From: an uncultured bacterium
Lineage (GTDB): Bacteria > Patescibacteriota > Patescibacteriia > Patescibacteriales > UBA12465
Assembly (NCBI GenBank): GCA_938003925.1
Contig: CALKWQ010000015.1
Span: 1,627 to 65,626, forward strand
Direction of reading: 5' to 3'
Length of the DNA stretch: 64,000 nt
The position numbers and the translations under genes are program-made. Below the pieces are notes generated by a model. It was not told the origin of the DNA, searched no databases, and saw nothing but the letters and a program-made list of their open reading frames with translations. Positions 9,084-51,380 of the stretch are shown here, piece after piece; position 1 is the stretch's first letter; each line of letters begins with the position of its first letter.

Positions 9084-9144
9084 AATTTAAGATTAGTTGA
9101 TAATTAGAGGTTTCTCCTGATATCAGTCTACCCTATCAAGATAA

Positions 9145-11060: not shown

Positions 11061-11074
11061 AAGTATTTTTTTTA

Positions 11075-11587
11075 TTATTTATATTTTATTTGATTATAGT
11101 GGTTGAGTTGTCGCCCTTCTCCGCTACCATTACCGAAATTGATACCATTTTCTTGCTTATATATTTTATTCATATAGCCACGTTGGTAAAAAATTTCGTT
11201 TAAACCAGTAGTATCAAGTAGGTAGCCGGCAACAGCTAGAACGGCAATAAACCAAAAAATTACCAATTTAAAATTTAGCTTATAAGAAAAATTATAACGA
11301 CGCACTAGCCAAAGGCCAATCGCTAACCCCAAAATCGCTAATATTAAAATCCACCAAGGAAAACTTTCTACTATCTGAGCAAGCCTATATTCCCCCATTG
11401 GCCCGTGCGTTCGCAAAGAGAATCTCAATAGACCAATTAAAAAAACTGAACTTAAAATAGATGACACTAAACCAATAAATGTTAAAATTGATCCAGCAAT
11501 GAAATATATTTTAGGGCGCATTTTTAACCTACCTAAGCGTATCTCATTCATGACATTGCCAGAGATGCTGTTTAATTCTTTTGACAT
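11075..11587 (-). CDS. membrane protein, putative anti-sigma partner
   Basis: 170 aa, 4 TM. Overlaps the end of the sigma gene by 16 nt (translational coupling). The role is inferred from position only. Confidence 0.45.
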   Translation of the reverse strand: MSKELNSISGNVMNEIRLGRLKMRPKIYFIAGSILTFIGLVSSILSSVFLIGLLRFSLRTHGPMGEYRLAQIVESFPWWILILAILGLAIGLWLVRRYNFSYKLNFKLVIFWFIAVLAVAGYLLDTTGLNEIFYQRGYMNKIYKQENGINFGNGSGEGRQLNHYNQIKYK

Positions 11588-12114
11588 ATGTGTTTTATTA
11601 ATATTTTTCCACGACTAATCCTAGTCGCCACTGTGCCCATTGGTAATCTCAAGATGTCGCTTATTTCTTCATAGGATTTTTCGTCAATATAATACAAACG
11701 TAGCGGTTCGGCGTATAACAAGGGTATTTTTTCAAAACATTTTTCAACCTGATCAATAATTTCTTGACGCTCAAAATCCTTTTCTAAATTTTCACTACTC
11801 TGAAAATCCACATTATCTAAGATGGGTATTTCTTTTCTATATTTTTTAGCTGCATTTATTGCTTCGTTATGAACAATGCGATAAATCCAACTAGAAAACT
11901 TCTTTTTGGTGTTAAATCCATTGAGGTTAATAAAGGCCTTAATGAATGATTCTTGAACGACATCAGCTGAATTTTGCTCATCTTTAACTAAGCTAAAAGC
12001 ATAGCGCAAAAGCTTATCCTGGTATCTAGTCATTATGACGGCATAAAGTTCCTGATCTTTAGACCTAACAAGCTCAATAATTTCTTCGTCAGAATATGTA
12101 TCTTTTTCATTCAT
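11572..12114 (-). CDS. ECF-type RNA polymerase sigma-70 factor
   Basis: Region 2 (DVVQESFIKAFINL, FSSWIYRIVHNEAINAAKK) and region 4 HTH (SYEEISDILRLPMGTVATRISRGK). I prefer the start at MNEKD (12114), because the longer ORF runs into the 12144-12179 hairpin. Confidence 0.8.
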   Translation of the reverse strand: MNEKDTYSDEEIIELVRSKDQELYAVIMTRYQDKLLRYAFSLVKDEQNSADVVQESFIKAFINLNGFNTKKKFSSWIYRIVHNEAINAAKKYRKEIPILDNVDFQSSENLEKDFERQEIIDQVEKCFEKIPLLYAEPLRLYYIDEKSYEEISDILRLPMGTVATRISRGKILIKHICQKN

Positions 12115-12143
12115 ATGCTTATTATAGCAAAATATGGTTAACG

Positions 12144-12179
12144 ACACACCAAGCTCGGTCTTTACCGAGCTTGGTGTGT
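12144..12179 (-). promoter_or_regulatory. perfect 16-bp stem-loop between the secreted-protein gene and the sigma gene
   Basis: acacaccaagctcggt-cttt-accgagcttggtgtgt. No clean U-tract on the minus strand, so it may be a terminator/attenuator or an RNA-stability element. Confidence 0.5.
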
Positions 12180-12209
12180 ATCTAGATGTTATTGGTAATA
12201 AATTTAAAT

Positions 12210-12614
12210 TTAGCGATTTAATCCCCGGCCCTGTCTATTGGTGTTAACACCGGAGTGATTTCCTGTGTGTTGACTAGCTCCTGATCCATTACGTAAACCC
12301 AACCCCAAATCTTTACGTAGTTGTTGAGCCTCAATAGTTTTTCCTTCAGCGGATAGTTTGTGAGCTTCAGCAAATTTGGAGAAATTATCCTGATTTACTA
12401 CTTGTAAAAACCTACCGTTACCACTCATCAAACTCTTCCAAGCATTGTAATCATTATTTGCAAAAGCCTGTTCCATAGCGGTATGACGATCGGCTGAATA
12501 ATTTGGACCCTTAACTGTAGAGTCACCCTGATAAGCTAAAGCTGAGCTAGCGAATATACTGGTTGCACCAATGGTTAAAGCCAGGGCACCCAAACTTAAT
12601 GTAATTTTTTTCAT
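12210..12614 (-). CDS. small secreted protein (signal peptide), unknown function
   Basis: 134 aa. MKKITLSLGALALTIGATSIFASSALA signal-like N-terminus. First gene of the sigma cluster. Confidence 0.55.
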   Translation of the reverse strand: MKKITLSLGALALTIGATSIFASSALAYQGDSTVKGPNYSADRHTAMEQAFANNDYNAWKSLMSGNGRFLQVVNQDNFSKFAEAHKLSAEGKTIEAQQLRKDLGLGLRNGSGASQHTGNHSGVNTNRQGRGLNR

Positions 12615-12749
12615 ATTTTTATATGTTAATTTTAATTATTTATAATTCACTTACTCGACCTTTGCCTCTAATACAAAGCTTAACTAGATTTTTTTTCATT
12701 AGTTTGTTTAATACACCTCCTATTAACTTAAATATATCTAATATTAAAA

Positions 12750-12780
12750 CAAAAAACAGGTATTAAAAACCTGTTTTTGT
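12750..12780 (-). terminator. intrinsic terminator of ileS
   Basis: Minus strand AACAGGT-TTTTAAT-ACCTGTT followed by TTTTGTTTT. Confidence 0.6.
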
Positions 12781-12826
12781 GTTCTGACCTGTAGAGTAAA
12801 TAGGATTATGATCGCAATTATGGTTA

Positions 12827-17992: not shown

Positions 17993-18056
17993 GCTCGGGG
18001 TCGCGGACAAAGTTCGAACCAAAGTCATTCAATATACCCATTATAAGAGACTGGGC
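17993..18056 (-). repeat. X1: tRNA-3'-end-like repeat (family X), begins right after the stop codon of 18057..19088
   Basis: Minus strand ...TTTGGTTCGAACTTTGTCCGCGACCCCGAGCAA. 25/27 identity to the X core gctcggggtcgtggacgaagttcgaac. Confidence 0.6.
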
Positions 18057-19088
18057 TTAATTCCTAGACTCATCTTCCCTGCCGATCTCTTCACAAACTT
18101 CTAGTCCTATGTTTTTAAGTGAAGCTTCTAGATCTTTATCATTAATTACTCTAGCTTCATTGTGTTTAGTAAATATTCCTCTATTTTTAGTGGTAAAGCC
18201 ATCTTTTGGTAAATTAACAGCTGTAGATGTCTTATCGCCTAACAGAGTTAATCTTCCTCTCTTAATATATGATTTAACTAACTTAATCACTGCTTTATCA
18301 TTATAGTTCTCTAGAATTGTACTCATGGCTCTCTTAACACTGTCAAAATCACCCTTAGAACGTCTAAATTCTTCTGATCCAATACTCATAATAAAGTCTA
18401 GAATATCAGTAGCTTTCTTTTCTTTTTCACCAATCTTTTTATCTTTGTTAAAAACAATATCAGGCATATTTAAAACTGGCTCACTAACTTCACCATCTTC
18501 ATGATTCTTAAAGATAATATCTCCAGCAAGAACTTCTCCCACTCCACCGTGTTCATCATGTATTTTTCTTAGATATTTACCTGATTCAGCTAAAGCTTGA
18601 AATCTATCAAAACCTTCTACTTTATCACTATTTATTAAATCAGAACGATAAAGGTCCTGTAAGGGTAAACCTTTTAGGTAAAGACCCTTATCTTTGATCT
18701 CAATACCCTTCTCATGAATATCATAGGCATATTCCAATCCTAATCTTTTTATATTCTCAAAAATCTCTTCCTTGCCACCCCTATATCTTTTTGTGCCCGG
18801 AGCTAAAAACTTAAAAAATAGCTTTGGATGACGGCTAAAAAGCTCACTTAAATCTTTAACAACATGTTCATCATAAGTTCTCAGTATAGCATCACCAAAT
18901 TTATCTATTTTAGAAACAATTCCTTTATTATTCCAAATCAGCTTGCCATCATCTTCTATCTCCATTTTTCCACCATAAACACCCACAGTGCTTTCAAAGT
19001 CCTCAGTTGGAACTCTTGATTCATTAACTTGTTCATTAACAGAGTCTCTAATCTTATTTAACGGATTAAAATTTTCAAATTTAAACAT
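18057..19088 (-). CDS. hypothetical protein (343 aa)
   Basis: Long ORF. Weak kinase-like flavour (YLRKIHDEHGGVGEVLAGDIIF), but catalytic residues are not recognisable. Confidence 0.6.
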   Translation of the reverse strand: MFKFENFNPLNKIRDSVNEQVNESRVPTEDFESTVGVYGGKMEIEDDGKLIWNNKGIVSKIDKFGDAILRTYDEHVVKDLSELFSRHPKLFFKFLAPGTKRYRGGKEEIFENIKRLGLEYAYDIHEKGIEIKDKGLYLKGLPLQDLYRSDLINSDKVEGFDRFQALAESGKYLRKIHDEHGGVGEVLAGDIIFKNHEDGEVSEPVLNMPDIVFNKDKKIGEKEKKATDILDFIMSIGSEEFRRSKGDFDSVKRAMSTILENYNDKAVIKLVKSYIKRGRLTLLGDKTSTAVNLPKDGFTTKNRGIFTKHNEARVINDKDLEASLKNIGLEVCEEIGREDESRN

Positions 19089-19138
19089 ATTTTTATATTA
19101 TAATAACTAAATTATATCATCTTTAAAAAGAGCCAACA

Positions 19139-19172
19139 ATAAAAAAAGAGGATGTTTTTACATTCCTCTTTA
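19139..19172 (-). terminator. intrinsic terminator (minus strand) inside the 720-nt non-coding gap
   Basis: Minus strand AGAGGAATG-TAAAAA-CATCCTCT (one bulge) followed by TTTTTTT. Confidence 0.5.
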
Positions 19173-19209
19173 ATCCAAGCATATTATTTTAGGAAAAAAT
19201 CTTCAATAT

Positions 19210-19311
19210 TTATTTATACATATCTCGAGTTGCACGCTCAGTAAAATGCCAAATTAAGGGGTGAAATAGAGAAGTTATCCCTATCATCACGCCGGCAAAT
19301 AATTTGGCCAT
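19210..19311 (-). CDS. possible 33-aa hydrophobic micro-ORF
   Basis: Hand-found: MAKLFAGVMIGITSLFHPLIWHFTERATRDMYK*. Sits between the T3a module and the 19139-19172 terminator. No other support. Confidence 0.2.
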   Translation of the reverse strand: MAKLFAGVMIGITSLFHPLIWHFTERATRDMYK

Positions 19312-19411
19312 TAATTTTAATGTTCTGTGTTTTTTTCATTTCTATCTATTTTTTAAGATTAAAAAAACTATTTTTTACTAACAAAAAAGCATGCCACACG
19401 GTATATTTTTT

Positions 19412-19453
19412 GACAGAACTCGGATTCGAACTAACAATCCCCTTTATTTTCAG
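19412..19453 (-). repeat. T3a: tRNA 3'-half-like fragment (family T3)
   Basis: Minus strand AAATAAAGGGGATTGTTAGTTCGAATCCGAGTTCTGTC, followed by a decayed copy of the TTGACA-N17-TATACT module. Confidence 0.5.
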
Positions 19454-19474
19454 CTCTTTTTACACATTTGACGT

Positions 19475-19505
19475 AAACAAAAAACATGACCTAAATCATG
19501 TTTCT
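19475..19505 (-). terminator. terminator-like hairpin between X2 and T3a
   Basis: Minus strand AAACATGA-TTTAGG-TCATGTTT followed by TTTGTTT. Confidence 0.5.
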
Positions 19506-19537
19506 TTGTATTTTGGCTAATGTTTAATACCTTGTAC

Positions 19538-19630
19538 CGGTCTTAAACACCAAAACGTTGTTGGCTCGGGGTCGTGGACGAAGTTCGAACCAGTGTGGCT
19601 AAGATTAAATAAGAATTAAGGGGATCATCT
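19538..19630 (-). repeat. X2 (19564-19630) plus 32-nt linker repeat (19538-19569)
   Basis: 27-nt core gctcggggtcgtggacgaagttcgaac at 19564-19590, identical to X3. Linker cggtcttaaacaccaaaacgttgttggctcgg is 31/32 identical to 22859-22890. Confidence 0.65.
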
Positions 19631-19809
19631 TAATGCGCTAAAGTTCAACTGAGGAATTTAATTATTTTCTACATGGCCTGGATTTCTATTATCAAGTCTC
19701 CTTTTTCCAGGGAGGTGCTAAACACTTCATAAGCCAGAAACACTTATTTTAATAATATCATTTTTTTGATATAATTAAATATATATAATAATATTTAATA
19801 ATATTTAGT

Positions 19810-21585
19810 ATGATAAATTTTTACAAAAAATTATTTTTTGTTTTAATGATTTTTATAGGGCTCCATTTCGCATCATCAGCTAAAGCGTCAGAATCATTTA
19901 CCGTCCTTACTCCAGTTGATGGAGTATCAGCTTCTATTGGTGATAATTTAAATATTTCTTGGTCAACCACTATCAATCAAAGCGATATTATTATGCAGAA
20001 AATTTCTTTTCAAGATGCTTATGGTCAATCTTATACAAACGCCTTACCCGATAATCATCATTTTACCATGGTTCCCGCCGGGACCAATAACTATAATTGG
20101 AAAATTCCTTCTGACGCAAATGGACTAATGGAAATTGAGCTATATAGCAGCTATTATGATTCTGAACAAAATGTAGCTATTTATTCTAAAAAAGTAAAAA
20201 TTAATGTAAGTCAGAATGCAAGCATTACCTTCCAGGAACCTAAATCTGGAGCTATTTATAATTTTAATGACAACATTCCTGTTAACTATGAATATAGTGG
20301 CTCAGGCAATGATGCTACTTTGCCAAAGAAATTTTATTTATACCGTGGAGACGATCTAATGGAAGATGATATATATATATCTGGCTCTAATAAATTCTGG
20401 ATCCAAAAAAGTCATTTAAGCGGAGATAATTACCGAATTAAAGTCCGCATCGGCTCTACCGAAGCTTTCAGTCCTTATTTTACAATAAAATATCCGGCTA
20501 TTGATGAAGTTAATGTTAATCTAGACAATACTAAATCATACATAATCGGTAGTAATTATGATATTACCTGGAGTTCCAACTGCAAGGGCGGAGTGGCTAC
20601 GATTTGGTTTTCAACTACACCTGAAGCATCTACTGAGGGCCAAATTATCTTTCCTCTAAGCAACTTTCAGAGTGCTAAAAATTTATTGGGAACAGATGCT
20701 TTTTACACTTATCAGAACGCCTTTATGTTCAACACTCTTGCCAACACAATGTTAAGCCCTAATCTCGAAAAAATAAATTGGTCAGTTCCAGAACAAATGA
20801 GTTTTTCAAATTATTCTTTTAACAATCAACTTACTAATTCATATTACATTTTTCGTCGCCCAAACAATGAATATGTAATTGCAGAAAAATCAAAAAACCC
20901 AGTCATTCTCACTGTCACCCCTGGACAATATGTAGTCCGTGTTGATATTAAGGGTGCTAATGGCTGTTTTGCTACTGGACAGAGCCAAATAATTAATGTT
21001 GCTGCTAAAGGCTCGCAAGATGCTCCTAAAATCGTAATACCTACTAAAATCACCACACCAATCAAATCTGACGTTGATAAAAACTCTTATGATTATTCTT
21101 TTTCAAAAAAACAGGCCGGAAAAATCTTACTGCAAGTTGAGTCTCGAGGAGAAGCTTGGTATGTAAATCCTAAAGATGGACGAAGACAATACATGGCTGA
21201 TGGCGCTACAGCTTATAGTATTTTGAGAAGTTATGGCGTTGGCATTACCAATAAAGATTTAAATAAGATTCTGGTAGCCACTGATTTTATTGATAATCTT
21301 GCAAACCTAGACTCAGATAATGATGGTTATAACGATAAACAAGAATTGCAGAACGGTTATAATCCATATGCTAGCGGAAAACTAGTGATAGATAAAAGTT
21401 TTTCTAACATACATAAGGGAAAAATATTTTTACAAGTTGAGTCTCATGGCGAAGCTTGGTATATAAATCCGATTGATGGTTTAAGATATTATTTAGGGGG
21501 GGCAAGTGATGCCTTTAACGTCATGAGAAGTTTGGGGCTAGGCATTACAAATACCAACTTAAATAAAATACCAATTAACAATTAA
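19810..21585 (+). CDS. secreted repeat protein (signal peptide; Ig-like-looking N-terminal repeats; two C-terminal ~55-aa repeats flanking a DxDxDG Ca-binding-type motif)
   Basis: 591 aa. Tandem KILLQVESRGEAWYVNPKDGRRQYM...GVGITNKDLNKI and KIFLQVESHGEAWYINPIDGLRYYL...GLGITNTNLNKI, with DSDNDGYNDKQE between them. Confidence 0.8.
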   Translation: MINFYKKLFFVLMIFIGLHFASSAKASESFTVLTPVDGVSASIGDNLNISWSTTINQSDIIMQKISFQDAYGQSYTNALPDNHHFTMVPAGTNNYNWKIPSDANGLMEIELYSSYYDSEQNVAIYSKKVKINVSQNASITFQEPKSGAIYNFNDNIPVNYEYSGSGNDATLPKKFYLYRGDDLMEDDIYISGSNKFWIQKSHLSGDNYRIKVRIGSTEAFSPYFTIKYPAIDEVNVNLDNTKSYIIGSNYDITWSSNCKGGVATIWFSTTPEASTEGQIIFPLSNFQSAKNLLGTDAFYTYQNAFMFNTLANTMLSPNLEKINWSVPEQMSFSNYSFNNQLTNSYYIFRRPNNEYVIAEKSKNPVILTVTPGQYVVRVDIKGANGCFATGQSQIINVAAKGSQDAPKIVIPTKITTPIKSDVDKNSYDYSFSKKQAGKILLQVESRGEAWYVNPKDGRRQYMADGATAYSILRSYGVGITNKDLNKILVATDFIDNLANLDSDNDGYNDKQELQNGYNPYASGKLVIDKSFSNIHKGKIFLQVESHGEAWYINPIDGLRYYLGGASDAFNVMRSLGLGITNTNLNKIPINN

Positions 21586-21629
21586 ACCGTATAACGTTAC
21601 CTTTAAAATTCGGATTAATTAAATATTTA

Positions 21630-21657
21630 AAAAAACGAGCATTTCTGCTCGTTTTTA
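21630..21657. terminator. bidirectional intrinsic terminator
   Basis: aaaaACGAGCA-tttc-TGCTCGTttttt: 7-bp stem with A-run and T-run flanks. Serves the plus gene and, on the minus strand, follows module Ya. Confidence 0.7.
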
Positions 21658-21660
21658 TAT

Positions 21661-21720
21661 CAATGCTCCCGCAGTAATATTCGAACCGGAGTCGGTCTTA
21701 AAACATGAATATCCACTGCC
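21661..21720 (-). repeat. Ya: tRNA-like fragment (family Y)
   Basis: Minus strand CGGCAGTGGATATTCATGTTTTAAGACCGACTCCGGTTCGAATATTACTGCGGGAGCATTG. 6/7 acceptor-like pairing CGGCAGT/ACTGCGG, but only 39 nt lie between the arms. Confidence 0.5.
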
Positions 21721-21844
21721 GTATATAACGTTAGCTAAGTTTAAGACCTAACACTAATTACTATTAACATTTAACTTAATAACTCCTTCTTTATCCTAGC
21801 TGAACATTCTTCACAAATACTTTGGCAAAATATTTGTATTAAAA

Positions 21845-22252
21845 TTACAATATGGAGTTTAAATCAAAATCATTAAATTTTTCTGGCAAGCGGCCGACAC
21901 TTTTTAAAAAAGGAATACCGACTCGCAAAAAATTTTTTTGTATATCCATATAACCATTTTTTCTAAGATTTTCGTTGTTTTCATTTATAGTATCAATTGC
22001 CTCGCTCAAATAACTTTCGATTTCTTCATCTGACATTATTTCATATTGGGATTTACCAAAATTACCTTCTAATTCTTCATCTGGCGTACTTCCTAAAGCT
22101 TTGTGATCTTCGCTAGTTAAAGAAAAAAATCCTTGTTCTTTTGATTTCTTAGCAGCTTGTTCAAATGCAGATATCTTTTGTTTTTCAAAATTTTCCATAC
22201 TATTAAAAAAATTACATATCCCTTGGTAATACCATACCACTATACGATTCAT
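21845..22252 (-). CDS. hypothetical protein (135 aa)
   Basis: ORF. Its ATG overlaps the TGA of the upstream Nudix gene (ATGA overlap), which supports co-translation. Confidence 0.5.
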   Translation of the reverse strand: MNRIVVWYYQGICNFFNSMENFEKQKISAFEQAAKKSKEQGFFSLTSEDHKALGSTPDEELEGNFGKSQYEIMSDEEIESYLSEAIDTINENNENLRKNGYMDIQKNFLRVGIPFLKSVGRLPEKFNDFDLNSIL

Positions 22253-22689
22253 TTAGCCTGGTATATCTTTCCGGCTTTTAAATTGCGAATCATAAGTTCT
22301 GTTCCTTCGAAAATTTTATCAGGCAAATCATCTATGCTAAACCACCTCCATTCCCCCCATTTATCTGGCTCTTCAACATTTGGCACCCCGCCTTTATAAA
22401 CACCTTCAGTTCCTATGTTTAAATAGTGTTTACCATCTGTTTCTATGTATCTCATTTCATCTGCAACTGATATTAATTTGAACTCATCAATATCCAAGCC
22501 AGTTTCTTCTTTAACTTCTCGCTTTGCTGTTTCAAATATAGTCTCGCCGAACTCCAGATGACCCCCAGGAAATGACCATTCTCCAGCTCCATGAGATCCT
22601 TTTCTTAACCCTAATAAAACTTCTCCCTTATCATTTTTTATCATTACCCCGATGCCAACTTTAGGATATTTTTTTTCTAAATTATTCAT
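22249..22689 (-). CDS. NUDIX hydrolase (MutT-like)
   Basis: Nudix box GGHLEFGETIFETAKREVKEETGL. 146 aa. Confidence 0.8.
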   Translation of the reverse strand: MNNLEKKYPKVGIGVMIKNDKGEVLLGLRKGSHGAGEWSFPGGHLEFGETIFETAKREVKEETGLDIDEFKLISVADEMRYIETDGKHYLNIGTEGVYKGGVPNVEEPDKWGEWRWFSIDDLPDKIFEGTELMIRNLKAGKIYQAK

Positions 22690-22709
22690 ATTTATTATCT
22701 GATGCTTTA

Positions 22710-22718
22710 ATTATAGCA
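22710..22718 (-). promoter_or_regulatory. extended -10 element (TGcTATAAT) for 22249..22689
   Basis: Minus strand TATGCTATAAT, 20 nt upstream of the ATG. Confidence 0.4.
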
Positions 22719-22731
22719 TAAATATTAATTG

Positions 22732-22772
22732 GACAGGAGTGGGATTCGAACCAAAAACCCCTTTATTTACAG
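22732..22772 (-). repeat. T3b: tRNA 3'-half-like fragment (family T3)
   Basis: Minus strand AAATAAAGGGGTTTTTGGTTCGAATCCCACTCCTGTCCAA: canonical-looking T-loop and 3' acceptor strand, with a decayed 5' T-stem. Confidence 0.55.
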
Positions 22773-22791
22773 ACCTTTCCGCTTATTTGAC

Positions 22792-22826
22792 TAAAACAAA
22801 AGAACTCAGCACAAACTGAGTTCTTT
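22792..22826 (-). terminator. intrinsic terminator between X5 and T3b
   Basis: Minus strand AGAACTCAG-TTTGTG-CTGAGTTCT (perfect 9 bp) followed by TTTGTTTT. Confidence 0.65.
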
Positions 22827-22858
22827 CGATTTTTTTGGTAATATTAGACCTCTCCTGT

Positions 22859-22929
22859 CGGTCTTAAACACCAAAATGTTGTTGGCTCGGAGACTGGGAT
22901 AAAATTGGAACTTTTTTGTAATAAATTAC
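22859..22929 (-). repeat. X5 (degenerate family X copy, 22884-22929) plus 32-nt linker repeat (22859-22890)
   Basis: ggctcggagactgggataaaattggaac aligns to the X core with many A/T substitutions. Starts right after the stop codon of 22930..23277. Confidence 0.5.
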
Positions 22930-23277
22930 TTAATTTTCTCTAATAATTGTCGGTTTAAAAAATCTTTCCTGGAATTCAACCAAAGACAGAATTTGCTCAT
23001 CAGAATAACTAACTCCATCTGGCACAACTATTAATTTATCATCGTCATCATCTAATCTATGAATTATGGCAATACATTTTCCAGTAAATTCTTCTTTTGG
23101 TTCAAATACTCCTAAAATATAAGCATCAACTCCTTCACCATCAGGAGCTAATTCATTTTCAATATAACCGTAATTAAAAGAATAATAGATATCGTATTTA
23201 GGGTGCTTAGACCCCAAAGCTCTATCTACTTTAACATTAACAATTTTATTTAAAAATTTAGTGGCATAATTATTCAT
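22930..23277 (-). CDS. small inorganic-pyrophosphatase-like protein (family I PPase fold, truncated type)
   Basis: 115 aa. DGEGVDAYILG...IIHRLDDDDDKLIVVP resembles the DGDPLD / acidic metal-binding cluster of soluble PPases. Assigned from recall. Confidence 0.55.
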   Translation of the reverse strand: MNNYATKFLNKIVNVKVDRALGSKHPKYDIYYSFNYGYIENELAPDGEGVDAYILGVFEPKEEFTGKCIAIIHRLDDDDDKLIVVPDGVSYSDEQILSLVEFQERFFKPTIIREN

Positions 23278-23283
23278 GAAATA

Positions 23284-23292
23284 ATTATAACA
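23284..23292 (-). promoter_or_regulatory. extended -10 (TGtTATAAT) only 6 nt from the ATG of 22930..23277; possible leaderless mRNA
   Basis: Minus strand TGTTATAAT-TATTTC-ATG. Confidence 0.35.
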
Positions 23293-23319
23293 TATAGTTC
23301 TAAAGCTATAAACTCCCTA

Positions 23320-23350
23320 CTAAAAATAGCCCCTAAAATAGGGCTATTTA
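23320..23350 (-). terminator. intrinsic terminator downstream of X3
   Basis: Minus strand ATAGCCC-(8-nt loop)-GGGCTAT followed by TTTTTAG. Confidence 0.55.
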
Positions 23351-23355
23351 AAAGT

Positions 23356-23421
23356 GCTCGGGGTCGTGGACGAAGTTCGAACTAATGTGACTAATATTTA
23401 AGAAAAACTAGAAGTATAATC
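23356..23421 (-). repeat. X3: tRNA-3'-end-like repeat (family X), begins right after the stop codon of 23422..23964
   Basis: 27-nt core at 23356-23382, identical to X2. Flank ...actaatgtgactaatatttaag aligns with X2/X4. Confidence 0.65.
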
Positions 23422-23964
23422 CTACTTAGAATCTTGAAAATCAATAAGATACTTATAAATGCCTTCAAAACCCTCTAAACTAGGGGCCCAATCATTAGAA
23501 TCATTTTTAATTCCCTCTACTATATCTTGCGCTGGCAACCACTTCACTTCTTGAACCTCATTATCAGCAAATTTTAAACTACTAATATCCTCTAATCCTG
23601 GATAATAATAAACATAAGTAAATTCATTGTTTGGCAAATCATCTCTTTTTAAAATTGGCCCGGGAATAAATTTATTAATATCAGCCCTTAATCCAATTTC
23701 TTCTTCTAACTCAGATATAAGTGTTTGTTTTACATCCTGACCTGATTTTAAATGGCCACCAAAACGTGTGTCCCACATGTTTGGGCACAAATCTTTTGCT
23801 TTAGACCTGAGATGAACGAGAAAATAATATTCATTATTCTTCTTCATAAAATAATAAATATGAACCGTTCTGTGCCAAGAGCCGTCTTTGTGAATTAGAG
23901 ATCTCAATTTCTTTTCTCCCGTAATATTATTATTTTCATCAACAATATCTAAATATTCTTCCAT
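23422..23964 (-). CDS. NUDIX hydrolase (IDI/ADP-ribose-pyrophosphatase-like subgroup)
   Basis: Nudix box GGHLKSGQDVKQTLISELEEEIGL. 180 aa. Confidence 0.75.
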   Translation of the reverse strand: MEEYLDIVDENNNITGEKKLRSLIHKDGSWHRTVHIYYFMKKNNEYYFLVHLRSKAKDLCPNMWDTRFGGHLKSGQDVKQTLISELEEEIGLRADINKFIPGPILKRDDLPNNEFTYVYYYPGLEDISSLKFADNEVQEVKWLPAQDIVEGIKNDSNDWAPSLEGFEGIYKYLIDFQDSK

Positions 23965-23986
23965 AGTAATTAAGATAAGAGCTTTT

Positions 23987-24913
23987 TTAATGTTCTAGTT
24001 CCTCTTTAATTAGTGGAACGATTTGCTTGCGCATGATTAAATTTGGCCTTTTGGCAACAGCCTCATTAAATTTAATATTTAAAACTTTTTCCAATAGTTT
24101 CTGTGTTTTTAGATCTGGACTGATAAAATAATTACATTCTAACTCTAACTCGATAGTATTTTGAAAAATATAATCTAGTCCCATATCTTGCCTTATTTTC
24201 TCAAGTACCTTAATAATTTCTTCAATTCTTTCTTTGATAAGCATCTCAGCTCCGACAATTTCAATTTGAGCAATGCCAACTTTTTTATCAGCAAAAGTAA
24301 ACCACGCAAAATCGCCTTCAATTCTTTCACTCAACTTGCTTCCTGATAAATCTGACTTGGCCATAAAAAGATCTTTCCAGAAATTATCTGGCAAGAGTGC
24401 TATTTTATCAAGATACTCTACGGCCTTTTTATCTCTGTCTGTTGTAACTCCACCCTTAAAATTAAGAGTATTGGATATAATGGCTCCACAAAGTAAAATT
24501 GCTGACTCTTTGGAAATATTAATATTATTTTCAATAAACTTTTCTGCTATTAAAGTAGCAGCTGAGCCGACTAATTCAATTTGCACCCTAGCATTAGGAA
24601 ATTTATCAGCTTCATTAATTTTTCTGTGATCAATAATCTCAACTACTTTTTCCGGCGCAATATTTCCCTCAAGACCATTTAAATCGCTGGCGTCAACCAG
24701 GACGACCTCATCAAAATTATCAGCATTAATTATTTTCTGGGGATATGGAATATTATAACGATCTAAAATATATTTAGCTTCGTCGTGCGGCTCTCCGATA
24801 ATACCAACAATAGATTCTCTGCCCGTCTTCTGTAAAAATTCACCATAGGCAAAGGCTCCAGCCACCCCATCTAAGTCTGGATTTACATAACATGTGATAA
24901 GTGTTGGTTTCAT
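23987..24913 (-). CDS. DHH-family phosphoesterase, family II (Mn-dependent) inorganic pyrophosphatase-like
   Basis: NPDLDGVAGAFAY, VLVDASD, IIDHRK and the C-terminal LFMAKSDLSG...VGIAQIE segment resemble PpaC/DHHA2 proteins. Assigned from recall. Confidence 0.7.
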   Translation of the reverse strand: MKPTLITCYVNPDLDGVAGAFAYGEFLQKTGRESIVGIIGEPHDEAKYILDRYNIPYPQKIINADNFDEVVLVDASDLNGLEGNIAPEKVVEIIDHRKINEADKFPNARVQIELVGSAATLIAEKFIENNINISKESAILLCGAIISNTLNFKGGVTTDRDKKAVEYLDKIALLPDNFWKDLFMAKSDLSGSKLSERIEGDFAWFTFADKKVGIAQIEIVGAEMLIKERIEEIIKVLEKIRQDMGLDYIFQNTIELELECNYFISPDLKTQKLLEKVLNIKFNEAVAKRPNLIMRKQIVPLIKEELEH

Positions 24914-24921
24914 ATATCACT

Positions 24922-24927
24922 ATTATA
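24922..24927 (-). promoter_or_regulatory. -10 box TATAAT 8 nt from the ATG of 23987..24913; possible leaderless mRNA
   Basis: Minus strand TAGGTTATAAT-AGTGATAT-ATG. Confidence 0.35.
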
Positions 24928-24957
24928 ACCTAAAAATTAAAATATAAAAACCAAAAA

Positions 24958-25001
24958 CACAGGACGTGGATTCGAACCAATATTGACCAATGAAATCAAG
25001 G
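24958..25001 (-). repeat. T3c: tRNA 3'-half-like fragment (family T3)
   Basis: Minus strand TTGGTCAATATTGGTTCGAATCCACGTCCTGTG. Confidence 0.5.
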
Positions 25002-25029
25002 TTTTTATATAAATTACTGTAGATTATCT

Positions 25030-25078
25030 AAAATATCCCAAAAATATTCGAACCGCTTTGGAACTTAAAATGTATCTA
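25030..25078 (-). repeat. Yb: tRNA-like fragment (family Y)
   Basis: Minus strand TAGATACATTTTAAGTTCCAAAGCGGTTCGAATATTTTTGGGAT aligns with Ya (GGATA..CAT.TTTTAAG....CGGTTCGAATATT). Confidence 0.5.
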
Positions 25079-25086
25079 ATATTAAA

Positions 25087-25111
25087 ACAAAAAAAGAGCC
25101 TTTCGGCTCAA
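25087..25111 (-). terminator. intrinsic terminator downstream of X6
   Basis: Minus strand GAGCC-GAAA-GGCTC followed by TTTTTTT. Same hairpin as at 17957-17980. Confidence 0.6.
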
Positions 25112-25123
25112 TTTTGTTGTTTT

Positions 25124-25183
25124 GCTCGCCTGGAGAGACAGCTTCCGAACTTGGATGGCTAATAATAAATAATATTTTGACCC
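25124..25183 (-). repeat. X6: degenerate family X copy, begins right after the stop codon of 25184..26869
   Basis: gctcgcctggagagacagcttccgaacttggatggctaataat aligns to X1/X2 (gctcg...ttcgaac...tggcta) with substitutions. Confidence 0.45.
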
Positions 25184-26869
25184 CTAATTCTTCATTCGCC
25201 TAACTTCCAAATCTACTAAATTATCTAGATTAAAATTTTCTCTTTCCGTTTCACATTCTTTTCTCTCTTTATCCGGATAGTTACTGCAGTTGGGATAACG
25301 GGCTACAAATTGCACCAAATAAACATTATTTTCTATTACTGTTGTATAAGCATATTGCGTATAGACAGATCCCGCCGCGCCCTCGCTAGAAGCACCTATG
25401 CAATATTTCTGGCCGTTTATTTCCTTTTTACTTATTCGAAGAGGTAAGCTAGATTCTAGAGGGGTTTCATTACACTCTATTTCACCATTTTCTATCCAAG
25501 ATTCTAACTTGGGGTATTCTTCGGCTTTAAATATGTTCGAACTATAATTTTGAAATGAAATATAACTAGCCTTAAAACTATCTGGTAAATTTGATTCTAT
25601 ATTCCCTTCTTCGGTATATAAATATTTAACCCCTATCACCTTGATTGTGCCTAAAGTTTTATAAATATCGCTTTCTTCGTTAACCAGCTCGCCGCTAATT
25701 TCTATTTTTTGCCCCTTTCTTATCTTATTAACTATATTATTTTTATCATCACTGGGCGCTTGCAAGCGATAATAATCACTATTACTATTCTTAATACCAA
25801 ATACACACAAATCATTATGCGATATATTCTCATCTTTTAGAGGCAGGCAAACAAACTCTCCAGAAACAACAAATAAATTATCATCTCCGCTCATCCCCTT
25901 ATATTCGCTTAAAAAATGAAAAGACTCCGATATTTTTTGATCAAAGCAATTATCATAAAAGAACCCCAGGCCAATCTGACATTCTTGTCCCGTACTCCAA
26001 AAAGCGACTCTTTTTTGAACCGGACTATAAATTATATAATTTGTATAATTGACCGGACATAAAGTCGACCCCAAATCTTTACCATCTCCATCTATTTCTA
26101 CGCGATAATTTCCACTGAATTGAGTCGGTATTTTGGCCTTATAACTACAACCAGAGCCAAGTTTTTGTTTAATAATTTTGTCTAAATCATCTTCATTTTC
26201 AACATTTAAAATCACGAAATGCCAAGACAAGGGATACTTAGAAGTATTATCATATTCAGGAATAAAAGTATTTTCTGTCTTCACCGATTCTCCGGTTTGC
26301 CAATCAAATGATATATCGTATTTTTGATGGAGATAAAAATTGTTATTTTTACTTAATACTTGGTTAGGGAGTAAAACGTCTAAGCCTTCCGGTAAATTAG
26401 TCCAAAGTTTACTATCAATAGACAATGACGGGTAACGAAACATAAAACCATATTCTTCATTTTTATAGTCAATCCATTCAATCGATTCTCTGGCATTTTT
26501 GATTATAATAAGACTCCAAATAGAGTAAAAACGAGAATAATGGCGATGCGTAGCCAATAGCGCATTATCATTTTTATCTTTAAAAAAATAACCAGAACCC
26601 ATCTGGCTGATAAATTCGTAGCCTTGATCTTTCAATAAACTAACTAAAACTTCTTGACCATTTTTGCCTTTAGTTAAATATTTATCTCCACCTATGTCTA
26701 ATTTAACAATTTTATTGCTAGCGAAATTTAATTGTATTATCCCTTTTAGTAGAGGGGTCGGGTTGCCTTCCTGAAAAATTACTGGCCGATATAACAAAAA
26801 AGCTAAAATAAAAATAATAATTAAGCCGCCAAAAAAAATTGATACTACCTTTTTATTTATTTTTAGCAT
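25184..26869 (-). CDS. hypothetical membrane-anchored protein (561 aa)
   Basis: Long ORF with N-terminal TM (VVSIFFGGLIIIFILAFLL). No family recognised. Confidence 0.6.
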   Translation of the reverse strand: MLKINKKVVSIFFGGLIIIFILAFLLYRPVIFQEGNPTPLLKGIIQLNFASNKIVKLDIGGDKYLTKGKNGQEVLVSLLKDQGYEFISQMGSGYFFKDKNDNALLATHRHYSRFYSIWSLIIIKNARESIEWIDYKNEEYGFMFRYPSLSIDSKLWTNLPEGLDVLLPNQVLSKNNNFYLHQKYDISFDWQTGESVKTENTFIPEYDNTSKYPLSWHFVILNVENEDDLDKIIKQKLGSGCSYKAKIPTQFSGNYRVEIDGDGKDLGSTLCPVNYTNYIIYSPVQKRVAFWSTGQECQIGLGFFYDNCFDQKISESFHFLSEYKGMSGDDNLFVVSGEFVCLPLKDENISHNDLCVFGIKNSNSDYYRLQAPSDDKNNIVNKIRKGQKIEISGELVNEESDIYKTLGTIKVIGVKYLYTEEGNIESNLPDSFKASYISFQNYSSNIFKAEEYPKLESWIENGEIECNETPLESSLPLRISKKEINGQKYCIGASSEGAAGSVYTQYAYTTVIENNVYLVQFVARYPNCSNYPDKERKECETERENFNLDNLVDLEVRRMKN

Positions 26870-27233
26870 AGTTTTTTATTAATAAATTAGCACCTCTAAT
26901 AACAATTCCTACCAGTCCGCCAAAAATGATTATGGCAGCAAAGAATAGAGTCGTATATAAAGCTTCTGGAATATAAAAATTTTCGCCAGAGTTGTAGACA
27001 ATTATTTGCCAGATAACTACGAATACAAAACTAGTTATAATTGAGCCAATAATCAGTTTGGGCAAAAAACAATAACTTTTATGTTCATTTTGCACCAAAA
27101 CCATTAAAACTCCGGCGACCAAAGGCAATAATATTATTTGCCAACCCCAAAAAAATGTAAACCAATCTGGTTTAAGGGTAAACATAAAGCTAACTATTAC
27201 TGTCAGCGCAGAAATAAAATAAATTTTTTTCAT
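26853..27233 (-). CDS. hypothetical 4-TM membrane protein
   Basis: 126-aa hydrophobic ORF. Overlaps the downstream gene by 17 nt. Confidence 0.5.
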   Translation of the reverse strand: MKKIYFISALTVIVSFMFTLKPDWFTFFWGWQIILLPLVAGVLMVLVQNEHKSYCFLPKLIIGSIITSFVFVVIWQIIVYNSGENFYIPEALYTTLFFAAIIIFGGLVGIVIRGANLLIKNYAKNK

Positions 27234-27297
27234 ATAATAATTATATCCTATAACTGTTACTTTAAAAACAGCGATACAAATTATACTTTTTTACTTA

Positions 27298-27326
27298 AAT
27301 AAAAAATAGGCTATTATTAGCCTATT
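27298..27326 (-). terminator. intrinsic terminator of 27326..28201
   Basis: Minus strand AATAGGCTA-ATAA-TAGCCTATT followed by TTTTTATTT. The stem abuts the stop codon. Confidence 0.6.
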
Positions 27327-28201
27327 TATTTTTTTACGTTCTCCTGCAAAATCTTATCTCTTAGCTTATCTCCCCCTATTTCATAGGCGGCTTTAACTAC
27401 AGATTCTTGGGTATTATCAACATTTTTAATAATCCGCAATACCTCGGGCATTTCTTGTTTTACAAGCTCAAGGAAATCATTGGATCCATCGAAATAAGAC
27501 TTAAAAAAGGGCCAGATGAATTTTTCACTTTTGTTGAGAAAAACCTCCTCAATTAAATGCACATGCAACGCATAGGCAAATTCATAAAAAATCCGACCCT
27601 TCTCTTCTTTACTAAATAAATTATCAAAAGCTCCGACTCTTTCCATTTCTCGTAATACAACTTTAGACCAAAGATCTGTGGCGGCTTCATTTAATCCAAA
27701 GCATGGACTATTTCCTTTTTCGCTTAAAGAATGAAAGCCTAGTTGATAAAAATCAATAGATCTACATTCCTTATTTTCTTTAACAGAAACAGAATAAAAT
27801 GAAAAAAGGTGGGAGATTTCATGAGCAATATCAATTACAAAATGACACCTATCTTTATTCTTCCTAAGGAAAATGTAACCAAACGAGCAGTTGCCGCCCT
27901 CATTTTCTGACATTTTAACATTTTTCTCATAAACTTCGTCATCTAAAATAATGATTTGATTATCAAATATTCTCATTGGCTTAAAACCATTAACTTTAAG
28001 AAGATTATTTCCCGCCTTTATAGCCGCAGCAATAATATGCTTCTCAAAGGTGGTCCAAATGAAAGACGAGACTTGGTGCACATTCATAACACGAGCAATT
28101 AAAAAATCATTTTTTGTTTCCTCGCTTACGGGCCCAATAAACTTTGGGGCATAGTTCCATTTTTCCTTCCAATAACCATTTCCAATATCTTTCGCACTCA
28201 T
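27326..28201 (-). CDS. hypothetical protein with HExxH zinc-metalloprotease-type motif
   Basis: 291 aa. VIDIAHEISHLF contains HEISH. No further family assignment. Confidence 0.55.
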   Translation of the reverse strand: MSAKDIGNGYWKEKWNYAPKFIGPVSEETKNDFLIARVMNVHQVSSFIWTTFEKHIIAAAIKAGNNLLKVNGFKPMRIFDNQIIILDDEVYEKNVKMSENEGGNCSFGYIFLRKNKDRCHFVIDIAHEISHLFSFYSVSVKENKECRSIDFYQLGFHSLSEKGNSPCFGLNEAATDLWSKVVLREMERVGAFDNLFSKEEKGRIFYEFAYALHVHLIEEVFLNKSEKFIWPFFKSYFDGSNDFLELVKQEMPEVLRIIKNVDNTQESVVKAAYEIGGDKLRDKILQENVKK

Positions 28202-28246
28202 TTGTACAAATTTTTAAGGTTCAACAATCATTTTAATTATCAAAAA

Positions 28247-28275
28247 AGTATACTATACGTATGCCTTTTTGTCAA
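28247..28275 (-). promoter_or_regulatory. sigma70-type promoter TTGACA-N17-TATACT for 27326..28201
   Basis: Minus strand TTGACA (28270-28275), 17-nt spacer, TATACT (28247-28252). Lies directly after X4. Homologous to 29255-29283. Confidence 0.55.
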
Positions 28276-28276
28276 T

Positions 28277-28342
28277 GCTCGGGGTCGTGGACGAAGTTAG
28301 AACTAGTGTGGCTAAAATTAAGGAAGAATTCAAGGGTTAATC
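28277..28342 (-). repeat. X4: tRNA-3'-end-like repeat (family X)
   Basis: Core at 28277-28303 is 26/27 identical to X2/X3. Its 3' end CCCCGAGCA-TTGACAAAA matches the tRNA-Gln 3' end plus flank. Confidence 0.65.
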
Positions 28343-28395
28343 TTTTATTTATATCTAAGTTACTAGAAAAATAACTATATATCCCCATTTCTCTA

Positions 28396-28428
28396 AAGAA
28401 AAAGGGCGCTCATGTTTGAACACCCCTC
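28396..28428 (-). terminator. weak terminator-like hairpin after 28484..28849
   Basis: Minus strand AGGGGTG...CGCCCT (6 bp with bulge and wobble) followed by TTTTTCTTT. Confidence 0.35.
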
Positions 28429-28483
28429 TAAATAATATAAGTTCATTTTTACCTTGTGTCGCCCCAGAAACCATCATTAACCT

Positions 28484-28849
28484 TTATCTTACCGACATCA
28501 GGCATTCTACACTGGAATAGAAGCCAGACATGACGTATGGTCGAATAATACACTCAACCAAAGCAGCTTTGGGAAAAGTTTGATGTACCTCATCAACCAG
28601 GTCAAGCACTAATCGTCTTTTAACTTTTTCGGTTCTTTCCGGTTTTTCAGTTAAGCCATCGATAAAAACAATGATTTCTTCGCCCAAACCTTTAGTCATA
28701 AGGTTTTGAGGAAAAAATATTGAAACCTGTTCTCTTTTAATTCTCAAATCTGCAATATCAGCAGCTCTTTGACACATAAGATCGGAAAAAATTTCCAATG
28801 TTTCTTTATCCGTTTCCGTTGGAATTCCATAAACAATCAAGATCGGCAT
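28484..28849 (-). CDS. hypothetical protein; possible tautomerase-superfamily fold (N-terminal Met-Pro)
   Basis: 121 aa. Begins MPILIVYGIP and has two beta-alpha-beta-like halves. Strong SD (GGAGGG) upstream. The family call is speculative. Confidence 0.5.
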   Translation of the reverse strand: MPILIVYGIPTETDKETLEIFSDLMCQRAADIADLRIKREQVSIFFPQNLMTKGLGEEIIVFIDGLTEKPERTEKVKRRLVLDLVDEVHQTFPKAALVECIIRPYVMSGFYSSVECLMSVR

Positions 28850-28892
28850 GATACCCTCCTTTTTTTAAGTGAATAATTAATTTTTTTAAATT

Positions 28893-29207
28893 TTAAGATA
28901 AAAATCTAACCCAAACGCCTCCAGCCGCAAAACAAAGTATATTGAAAAATGTTACAATAACAAAATTTTCAAGCGGCCAGCTCGATAAATAGAATATCAA
29001 ACTATGACCTATAATACCTAATACCGTTGGTATATAAGCATCGGCTAATCTTTGCACCTCTCCCATCTTTATTATTCTGTAAATTATAAACCCCAGAAAT
29101 GCTGGGCCAAGAAAAGGAATAACAGTGCAAATAAAAGCGAAGAAGAAAAACACAAGCCATAATATAATTTTAGGCTGGTAAGTCATTTGATGAACTAAAT
29201 TTCTCAT
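28893..29207 (-). CDS. hypothetical 3-TM membrane protein
   Basis: 104-aa hydrophobic ORF. First gene after the tRNA-Gln promoter module. Confidence 0.5.
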   Translation of the reverse strand: MRNLVHQMTYQPKIILWLVFFFFAFICTVIPFLGPAFLGFIIYRIIKMGEVQRLADAYIPTVLGIIGHSLIFYLSSWPLENFVIVTFFNILCFAAGGVWVRFLS

Positions 29208-29247
29208 TTTATGAATTTTTAAAGGTTCGACAATACAATTTTAACTA

Positions 29248-29283
29248 TCAAAAAAGTATACCACATAGGTATACTTTTGTCAA
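29248..29283 (-). promoter_or_regulatory. overlapping tRNA-Gln terminator hairpin and TTGACA-N17-TATACT promoter
   Basis: Minus strand TTGACA(29278-83)-AAAGTATACCTATGTGG-TATACT(29255-60)-TTTTTT. AGTATACC/GGTATACT also forms a perfect 8-bp hairpin followed by T6. Confidence 0.6.
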
Positions 29284-29287
29284 CTTG

Positions 29288-29358
29288 CTCGGGGACAGGG
29301 ATTCGAACCCCGATAAACAGGACCAGAACCTGTTGTCCTACCATTAGACGATCCCCGA
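29288..29358 (-). tRNA. tRNA-Gln (anticodon CUG)
   Basis: Hand-folded cloverleaf. Acceptor UCGGGGA/UCCCCGA (U1-A72), D arm GUCU..GGAC, anticodon arm ACAGG-UUCUGGU-CCUGU, T arm CGGGG-UUCGAAU-CCCUG, discriminator G. No encoded CCA. Confidence 0.9.
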
Positions 29359-51293: not shown

Positions 51294-51377
51294 GCCGCGG
51301 TGGCGGAACTGGTAGACGCGCACGACTCAAACTCGTGTGGGGGAGACTCCGTGAGGGTTCGATTCCCTCTCGCGGCA
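51294..51377 (+). tRNA. tRNA-Leu (anticodon CAA), type II with long variable arm
   Basis: Hand-folded. Acceptor GCCGCGG/UCGCGGC, anticodon arm CACGA-CUCAAAC-UCGUG, variable arm UGGGGGAGACUCCGU, T arm GAGGG-UUCGAUU-CCCUC, discriminator A. Confidence 0.9.
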
Positions 51378-51380
51378 CAT

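Follow-up and report, generated by a model that had tools for sequence, protein, structure and literature searches.

The tRNA-Gln locus and its direct repeat

The 64,000-nt stretch of DNA analysed here, which we call the window, comes from an uncultured bacterium of the Patescibacteriota and contains an intact tRNA-Gln(CUG) gene, on the 3' side of which lies a tandem array of small gene units that begins with a repeat of about 85 nt, present again 1 kb further on. The similarity of its LysRS (best match 86%) places the organism in Candidatus Falkowbacteria. The genes on the lysS/greA side of this tRNA gene are syntenic in 67-80 related loci (cited below by L numbers), and the lysS-tRNA-Gln arrangement itself is kept in 61 of 80 Falkowbacteria loci, while nothing is conserved on the 3' side: in 60 relatives and in L135, the sequence diverges directly after the last 8 nt of the tRNA gene, CCCCGAGC, hereafter the core. 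GC content is 29-35% at 18-29.3 kb, against about 40-51% to the right of the tRNA gene (1-kb windows), and all genes of the repeat region are read on the minus strand. The sequences found directly after tRNA-Gln in relatives, which we call cassette heads, belong to a few recurrent types, each of which also occurs in the window after an X element (a short sequence described below) or after another pseudo-tRNA stub. Because X and head sequences are repeated and the site varies between strains, contigs break just past tRNA-Gln, and 17 of 61 contigs from metagenome-assembled genomes (MAGs) stop no more than 150 nt beyond it.

A preliminary description of the window had estimated the two copies of the repeat to be about 80% identical, with two small gaps. 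Global alignment of 28199-28284 with 29205-29294 (both minus strand) bears out the direct repeat and its level of identity (76 of 93 columns, or 82%), while the gaps prove more numerous, with 10 gap columns in five small gaps. Local alignment scores of 90-94 compare with 15.4 +/- 2.5 (maximum 27) for 500 shuffles. The alignment starts with the core, ends at the ATG plus 2 nt, and gains nothing from 300 nt of flank on either side; the proteins encoded downstream of the two copies are unrelated, as had been noted (Smith-Waterman score 25, against 27.8 +/- 5 for shuffles). We refer to the part beyond the core as head A in the copy behind tRNA-Gln and as head A' in the copy behind the element X4 (Table 1). 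The third, weaker copy that had been suspected is found at 19348-19412 (minus strand), with a score of 49 against head A (shuffles 15.9 +/- 2.5) and an nhmmer E-value of 0.006, and it likewise comes after a pseudo-tRNA 3' end.

Table 1. Positions of the features of the repeat region and the array in the window
Feature	Position	Strand	Evidence or content
tRNA-Gln(CUG), intact; proposed integration target (attB-side half)	29287-29358	minus	ARAGORN; Rfam tRNA model, 59 bits
Core copy 1, CCCCGAGC: acceptor 3' strand, discriminator base and one further C	29287-29294	minus	Only stretch common to tRNA-Gln and X
Cassette C1 (1,010 bp): head A, orf104, orf121, X4	28277-29286	minus	Same length and content in L139, L136 and L133
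Head A of C1	29208-29286	minus	A-tract, 11-bp hairpin and T-tract, with predicted promoter and 47-nt leader to ATG
orf104, gene 1 of C1, 104-aa membrane protein	28893-29207	minus	ORF list; sole Pfam match weak, holin-like, E = 0.007
orf121, gene 2 of C1, 121 aa	28484-28849	minus	ORF list; identical protein in L136 and L139
X4, right end of C1; pseudo-tRNA-Gln 3' end	28277-28347	minus	nhmmer X model, 62.5 bits
Core copy 2, CCCCGAGC, end of X4	28277-28284	minus	L136 ends here, L139 diverges here
Head A' of cassette C2	28202-28276	minus	Predicted TTGACA 28270-28275, 17-nt spacer, TATACT 28247-28252; hairpin degenerate
C2 body	25124-28201	minus	orf291 27326-28201, orf126 26853-27233, orf561 25184-26869, terminal stub
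C2 terminal stub, another recombinase type	25124-25175	plus	Translation, LLAWRDSFRTWMANNK and a stop codon
Rest of the array, roughly nine units	17993-25123	minus	Repeat families D1, D4, D7 and D17; nhmmer X; stub translations

Cassette C1 in other contexts and species

The unit between the two copies, cassette C1, recurs as a discrete block. L139 contains 28277-29294 (1,018 nt) at 99.9% identity, with a different X before it and a different (type-4) head after it. In L136, C1 stands at 98.4% identity behind the tRNA-Gln gene of another species, recognized as such because the 3' end of lysS is only 82% identical at the nucleotide level; the tRNA variant of L136, followed by an identical head start, is also present in L078. 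A homologue of 80% identity over 1,039 nt lies between two X elements in L133 and is followed by unrelated DNA. L135 matches the window at 98.4% identity along 8.3 kb, a stretch that takes in lysS and tRNA-Gln, and carries another cassette immediately past CCCCGAGC. Population variants with junctions exactly at the repeats are thus found (L139, L136 and L135), and these variants, together with alignment scores well above those of shuffles, support the earlier suggestion that the repeats form an attL/attR pair or cassette junctions. That suggestion requires three amendments, of which the one on X4 is given further below. The copies are junctions, but only the 8-nt core can be the crossover, the other ~77 nt of each copy being cassette heads; and although they delimit one two-gene unit, they belong to a tandem array of about 11 such junctions rather than forming an isolated attL/attR.

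The same kind of junction is seen well beyond C1. Comparison of 54 metagenome contigs shows X variants that are identical, as is the DNA upstream of them, but that continue into different sequences exactly from the end of CCCCGAGC onward (for instance in the groups L131/L096/L105/L115 and L081/L102/L082/L112). Variant bases within X travel with the cassette on the left, such as the TTCTAAC shared by C1 in the window, L136 and L139, and the heads on the right differ from the first or second base past the core. The tRNA-Gln gene and X have 8 contiguous nt in common, X having a 5-nt T-loop insertion and different acceptor bases. Since X variants stay on the left, heads differ right after the core, and tRNA and X share nothing longer, the crossover is confined to the 8-nt core. 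We consider it likely that the two copies of the 85-nt repeat form the junctions, left and right, of a mobile cassette of 1,010 bp that was inserted site-specifically at the extreme 3' end of tRNA-Gln.

X elements and large serine recombinase genes

The X family has four copies of 71-76 nt in the window, X1 (17993-18068), X2 (19564-19634), X3 (23356-23427) and X4. Read on the plus strand, X4 (28275-28340) translates to MLGVVDEVRTSVAKIKEEFKG followed by a stop codon. An ORF of 513 aa in L123 (1566-3107), encoding a large serine recombinase (LSR), ends with ...SMLGVVDEVRTSVAKIKEELEV and a stop codon across an X, and window positions 28266-28331 match residues 490-511 of this protein at 91% identity (tblastn). 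The L123 LSR matches solved serine recombinases, TP901-1 integrase among them, and its relative in L087 contains the Pfam domains Resolvase, Recombinase and Zn_ribbon_recom. From the continuity of the L123 ORF across X, the tblastn match and the domains of the relatives, it follows that X corresponds, in reverse complement, to the final ~21 codons of an LSR gene and is a C-terminal stub. X4 had been described as standing in the position of a tRNA gene, and it does occupy the place of a tRNA 3' end, but it is a displaced LSR stub.

We also considered X as a tRNA, a tRNA-like RNA or another non-coding RNA and rejected this, as no X is called by ARAGORN or Rfam with a threshold as loose as E <= 10, and on both strands the fold of X is no more stable than that of shuffles (z = +0.7 and +2.2). 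The metagenome scan for X required 26 near-exact bases, with the first 26 nt fixed, so that the codon periodicity of X variability is uninformative as a means of telling constraint on the protein from constraint on the DNA.

In the window, the 21-codon stub X4 and other stubs stand in place of a full LSR gene. Among relatives, an LSR lies at the target-proximal end of the element in L087 (Pfam) and in L123, L100, L034, L021 and L125 (tblastn). In L034 and L021, an intact LSR gene directly adjoins tRNA-Gln on its downstream side, and its last residues (…SSSMLGDRDSNP…) are encoded on the antisense strand of the tRNA gene. An X next to an intact LSR gene is found in L123 and L100, and at least 10 more loci have truncated LSR remnants behind tRNA-Gln or X.

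The elements that carry an LSR in L123, L087 and L021 also encode a G2P-type rolling-circle Rep; in L087 a REP_ORF2-G2P domain is accompanied by Zot (E = 6.8e-10), and in L123 Rep occurs without Zot. By their gene content, these LSR-bearing relatives look like inovirus-type prophages, and inoviruses have been reported in bacteria of the Candidate Phyla Radiation (CPR). Nothing of the kind, neither Zot nor inovirus Rep, is found in the window. The L087 element, of 12.4 kb, combines the LSR with Rep, Zot, a LexA-like repressor, MazG, a C5 methylase and HNH, and has an X-like stub at its end. Its LSR gene (88-1722) is located at a tRNA-Asn(GTT) gene (55-129) whose 3' end is ...CCCTCGGAGC, and in L134 (5481-5553) an array or prophage of this kind likewise stands behind tRNA-Asn(GTT).

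Viral contigs of IMG/VR gave no close relative of the L123 LSR; a profile search alone retrieved relatives, at 30-38% identity. These are repeatedly convergent with, or overlap, tRNA genes (Asp, Ser, Gln, Trp, Glu and Gly), and this recurrence makes tRNA-end targeting look like a property of the LSR clade. On the small viral contigs L143, L153, L160, L162, L172, L190, L200, L201 and L202 (22-38% identity), the end of the LSR gene lies within ~200 nt of an opposite-strand tRNA gene or overlaps it, and the C-termini of several other IMG/VR LSRs resemble antisense tRNA (…GSDSNRRP…). An exact-pattern scan of IMG/VR for X gave no match.

Cassette heads

Head A combines a hairpin (29252-29278), whose region folds with z = -3.3, and a predicted sigma-70-like promoter consisting of TTGACA (29278-29283), a 17-nt spacer and TATACT (29255-29260). 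The prediction matches the consensus at 11 of 12 positions in head A as well as in head A', for which the fold z-score is -0.97. The -10 hexamer coincides with the 3' arm of the head hairpin, so that the promoter overlaps an intrinsic-terminator hairpin. Given this overlap, transcripts arriving from upstream would meet a terminator, and transcripts started at the promoter would not contain the hairpin.

All 15 nhmmer matches of the head-A family have a tRNA, an X or another pseudo-tRNA stub immediately before them and unrelated genes behind them, and the motif has no match in the other ~50 kb of the window. Head A is also found behind a tRNA-Ser gene (L104). The other tRNA gene of the window (Leu, 51294-51378) is directly followed by an A-tract, a hairpin and a T-tract, a similar trailer from which we take the first part of the head to be a normal tRNA trailer. 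The head of L138 joins an A-type hairpin to an A' leader, and the heads appear, from such comparisons, to behave as exchangeable 5' modules of cassettes.

L138 and the window are 99.6% identical over 1.7 kb, and several of the ~6 mismatches fall within the hairpin of head A' (window 28247-28276, L138 1-30), which pairs perfectly in L138 but is disrupted in the window; both promoter hexamers are retained. Two further head types are ORF-less units in their own right. Head 3, a non-coding unit of ~165 nt (window 24960-25123, minus strand), has more than 35 copies at 75-86% identity in about 30 loci (for example at 9118, 11390 and 12809 of L119). It always starts right after the core of tRNA-Gln, X or another stub, ends with ...GGTTCGAATCCACGTCCTGTG and holds two T-loop-like GGTTCGAA motifs; RNAalifold gives no consensus fold for it as a structured RNA. 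Head 4, of ~150 nt (window 22731-22884 and 19416-19563), starts with CAACAACGTTTTGGTGTTTAAGACCG, holds a terminator and is closed by a further pseudo-tRNA 3' end; it behaves like an empty cassette. It also stands directly behind tRNA-Gln in L026, L046, L048, L009 and L049.

A model for cassette movement, and its alternatives

We propose that each junction joins a tRNA-like 3' end, terminating in CCCCGAGC, to a cassette head, the core being the crossover region. The head would provide a terminator for transcription arriving from upstream, notably from the tRNA gene, and an overlapping promoter with a leader for the cassette genes. X would be the attP-side arm of an LSR element. As long as the element is free or intact, its LSR gene would read across the core, with X as the last ~21 codons, and on integration the LSR body would come to adjoin the tRNA gene while X would be left at the far junction. 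An uninterrupted series of X, core and LSR body would accordingly be attP-like, tRNA, core and LSR body would be attL, and X, core and any other sequence would be attR. Repeated integration at the regenerated tRNA end would push older units outward and produce the low-GC array of ~11 units at 18-29.3 kb.

Movement is probably due to a serine recombinase carried on filamentous-phage-like elements. The intervals from a boundary to the next X (n = 34) measure 0.8-9.1 kb, many of them only ~1 kb, and a single one contains an intact LSR; as 33 of 34 intervals lack it, and the window has none, the cassettes would be moved by an enzyme encoded elsewhere. We infer that LSR catalysis underlies these events and that LSR-less cassettes could be mobilized by either of two routes. 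By hitch-hiking, or accretion, an LSR element would co-excise with a neighbouring cassette via the distal X, integrate at another tRNA-Gln and later excise alone; the X next to an intact LSR in L123 and L100 would be the intermediate expected under this route. Alternatively, an LSR from elsewhere would act in trans on circles made of X, core and head. Hitch-hiking seems to us the better of the two, as a specific half-site is hard to reconcile with such diverse heads, although the data do not decide between them.

Several observations weigh against this model. The window contains no LSR or other recombinase gene: tblastn with six LSRs matches X4 only, and Pfam scans of the island ORFs find none. 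No circular form or empty site (tRNA-Gln joined to head A') was found, exact-protein look-ups giving integrated contexts only, and the junction of X4 with head A' in the window is not spanned by any independent assembly, since L138 starts, L136 ends and L139 diverges there. LSRs as commonly described require a defined half-site to the left and another to the right of the crossover, whereas the 63 distinct heads to the right of the core have in common only an A-rich tract and a hairpin; a search for a second half-site motif there found nothing beyond A-richness, then the hairpin and a T-run. The 82% likeness of heads A and A' is not required by an att model and is explained only as shared ancestry or head exchange. 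Finally, the conservation of X is in part an ascertainment effect of the scan pattern and cannot alone prove a functional site.

The most serious competitor to hitch-hiking is a platform akin to an integron, in which the tRNA-Gln 3' end is the fixed site, X the cassette-borne site, and LSR-less circles of X, core and head are moved singly in trans, so that the cassette and not the phage is the mobile unit. The scarcity of LSR genes among X-bounded intervals, many of them near 1 kb, would fit such a platform, as would the exchange of both neighbours of C1 at 99.9% identity and the presence in every cassette of its own X, whose variants (TTCTAAC in the window, L136 and L139) move with the cassette on the left. 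The right half-site would, however, have to be the head, and heads are very diverse; X has no attC-type hairpin potential and no circle was seen; and hitch-hiking accounts for the same data while also predicting the X next to an intact LSR in L123 and L100. We therefore hold the platform possible but distinctly less than likely.

Explanations that dispense with a site-specific serine recombinase fare worse. Homologous recombination between repeated X elements or heads, for instance after DNA uptake, could shuffle cassettes, since X copies are about 90% identical along 45-70 nt, heads fall into few families, and L138 has a head seemingly pieced together from an A-type hairpin and an A'-type leader. 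Homology over the 8 contiguous bases shared by tRNA-Gln and X cannot, however, create the tRNA-cassette junctions of the window and L136, and in dozens of contexts LSR genes are truncated at the same codon, which also suggests that the break is site-specific; this explanation appears unlikely. We give still less credence to a local duplication or shared regulatory motif, by which the 85 nt would be a strong promoter, terminator and leader placed before two genes, with no mobility involved. The TTGACA-17-TATACT arrangement kept in both copies, the trailer of tRNA-Leu and the head A behind tRNA-Ser in L104 are in keeping with it, but the motif never occurs away from tRNA or pseudo-tRNA ends, and the core, X4 and the presence of C1 in other contexts and species are left unexplained, which contradicts it as a complete explanation. 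A classical tDNA island, the work of a tyrosine integrase, in which X would be what is left of a decaying tRNA copy, would agree with an intact tRNA gene and co-oriented 3' fragments that delimit low-GC DNA; we regard it as just as improbable, as X is in frame and continuous with LSR genes. Phage_integrase is absent among the families listed for 259 clusters of island proteins from relatives, which is not a full exclusion, and in the window none of the 20 largest island ORFs matches this family in Pfam.

The wider array and its cargo

Between 29286 and 17993, about 11 units are bounded by X4, X3, X2, X1 and other pseudo-tRNA stubs, the latter near 25045, 24960, 22885, 22731, 21665 and 19416. 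The plus-strand translations of these stubs resemble LSR C-termini, for example LLAWRDSFRTWMANNK and SRSNIRTGVGLKT, each followed by a stop codon. Arrays are always co-oriented, and CCCCGAGC ends tRNA-Gln as well as X1-X4. The body of C2 is matched at 99.6-99.96% identity by L137 and L138. With the exception of the weak holin-like match of orf104, none of the proteins orf104, orf121, orf291, orf126 and orf561 has a match in Pfam, PHROGs or PADLOC.

The only cassette gene running against the orientation of the array is a plus-strand gene of 591 aa (19810-21585) with a bacterial TSP3-repeat match, which contains a 93-nt direct repeat (21099-21191 and 21399-21491, 75% identity, 300 nt apart). In L123, an X-ended cassette of ~2.53 kb (10713-13245) encodes a reverse transcriptase (RVT_1, E = 6.6e-27) and, upstream of it, a protein of ~220 aa; the LGNxxSQ / YADD motif of this reverse transcriptase is typical of diversity-generating retroelements, and the cassette occurs in 8 contigs, among them L103, L098, L095 and L045. 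Across the related islands (L001-L080 downstream of tRNA-Gln, and L081-L134), the cargo is rich in restriction-modification genes (DpnII, NgoPII, McrBC and several methylases) as well as in Fic, AbiEii-type toxins, NUDIX hydrolases and HNH nucleases, so that the site works as a defence and accessory island. Elsewhere in the window, a bacterial RNase P RNA of class A was identified at 57234-57592 (minus strand, 236.6 bits).

Comparison with known systems

C1 and its array belong to a larger system that has been little described. The closest precedent is provided by the ssrA islands of Dehalococcoides, which stand in tandem behind the tmRNA gene and are bounded by 20-bp repeats of its 3' end; they encode a CcrB-like serine recombinase of ~540 aa on the reverse strand next to attL, and about half of them lack an integration module, for which accretion has been proposed (PMC3146451). 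The two systems have in common tandem co-oriented units downstream of the end of a tRNA-like gene, short direct repeats as delimiters, and a conserved motif just upstream of each repeat that is unmatched in the target gene. Here, in contrast, the target is a true tRNA gene (Gln, or Asn in some relatives) in Patescibacteria, the core measures 8 nt instead of 20, and the C-terminal codons of the recombinase gene itself span the att site and mimic the target. The present units are also much smaller, lack a recombinase in 33 of 34 cases and are each opened by a terminator/promoter head, and the LSR elements are inovirus-like and have no second small serine recombinase.

In staphylococci, SCC/SCCmec composites and pseudo-SCC elements occupy rlmH (orfX), where CcrAB or CcrC integrates them at the 3' end of the gene. 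There too, an LSR inserts elements into the 3' end of a conserved gene, short direct repeats separate the members of tandem composites, and recombinase-less units can be mobilized in trans (partly as summarised in PMC3146451); unlike the cassettes, SCC elements have a protein-coding target, are 20-60 kb in size and are not known to show either an overlap of recombinase gene and att site or tRNA mimicry. In tDNA islands (Islander, PMC4383910; TIGER, PMC7192596) and tycheposons (bioRxiv 10.1101/2020.12.28.424599), the tRNA gene is likewise regenerated and its 3' fragment displaced, flexible islands can be recognized by their rows of fragments, and units with nothing but cargo build up. Those systems, however, use tyrosine integrases (in tycheposons, a deep-branching tyrosine recombinase is the hallmark), whereas an LSR is the only recombinase linked to the junctions described here, and the fragment of a classical tDNA island is usually identical to the tRNA over at least 15-20 nt, against 8 contiguous nt here. 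Islander (PMC4383910) and TIGER (PMC7192596) both state that no serine integrase was known to insert at tRNA genes, the 14 candidates among 297 being unproven.

Integrons, too, consist of an ordered, co-oriented array of small cassettes at one fixed site, with a recombination element at the 3' end of each cassette and a recombinase encoded outside the cassettes. The array differs in having no IntI with attI and a Pc promoter beside it (the DNA flanking the insertion point contains lysS and greA, conserved in 76-80 loci, and no integrase), an X that is not a foldable attC, cassettes with their own promoters and terminators, and a tRNA end as insertion point. In Vibrio cholerae, CTX-phi/RS1/TLC arrays sit at dif and use host XerCD and a folded single-stranded attP. 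These arrays resemble ours in combining elements of filamentous-phage type with satellites that lack the full set of functions, in tandem at one chromosomal site; they depend on host XerCD, and not on an element-encoded LSR and a tRNA end.

Significance

Surveys hold serine integrases to be unknown at tRNA genes; the locus and its relatives supply dense comparative evidence for such use by one LSR clade. With their compact LSRs and att sequences that are short and sharply bounded, these elements are candidate tools for genome engineering. CPR bacteria, or Patescibacteria, have tiny genomes, and gene exchange among them is poorly understood; the tRNA-Gln site offers a concrete and testable route of horizontal transfer. 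It turns over between strains that are 98% identical, holds a cassette common to different species at 98-99.9% identity, and constitutes a reservoir of accessory and defence genes. More tentatively, Falkowbacteria, and probably other Patescibacteria, may operate an integron-like capture system in which an LSR clade uses tRNA 3' ends as the fixed site and the 70-nt X, a relic of the C-terminal codons of the recombinase, as the portable site; self-expressing cassettes of ~1 kb, each with a terminator and promoter head, would be exchanged between species, and inovirus-like elements would possibly aid their packaging or replication.

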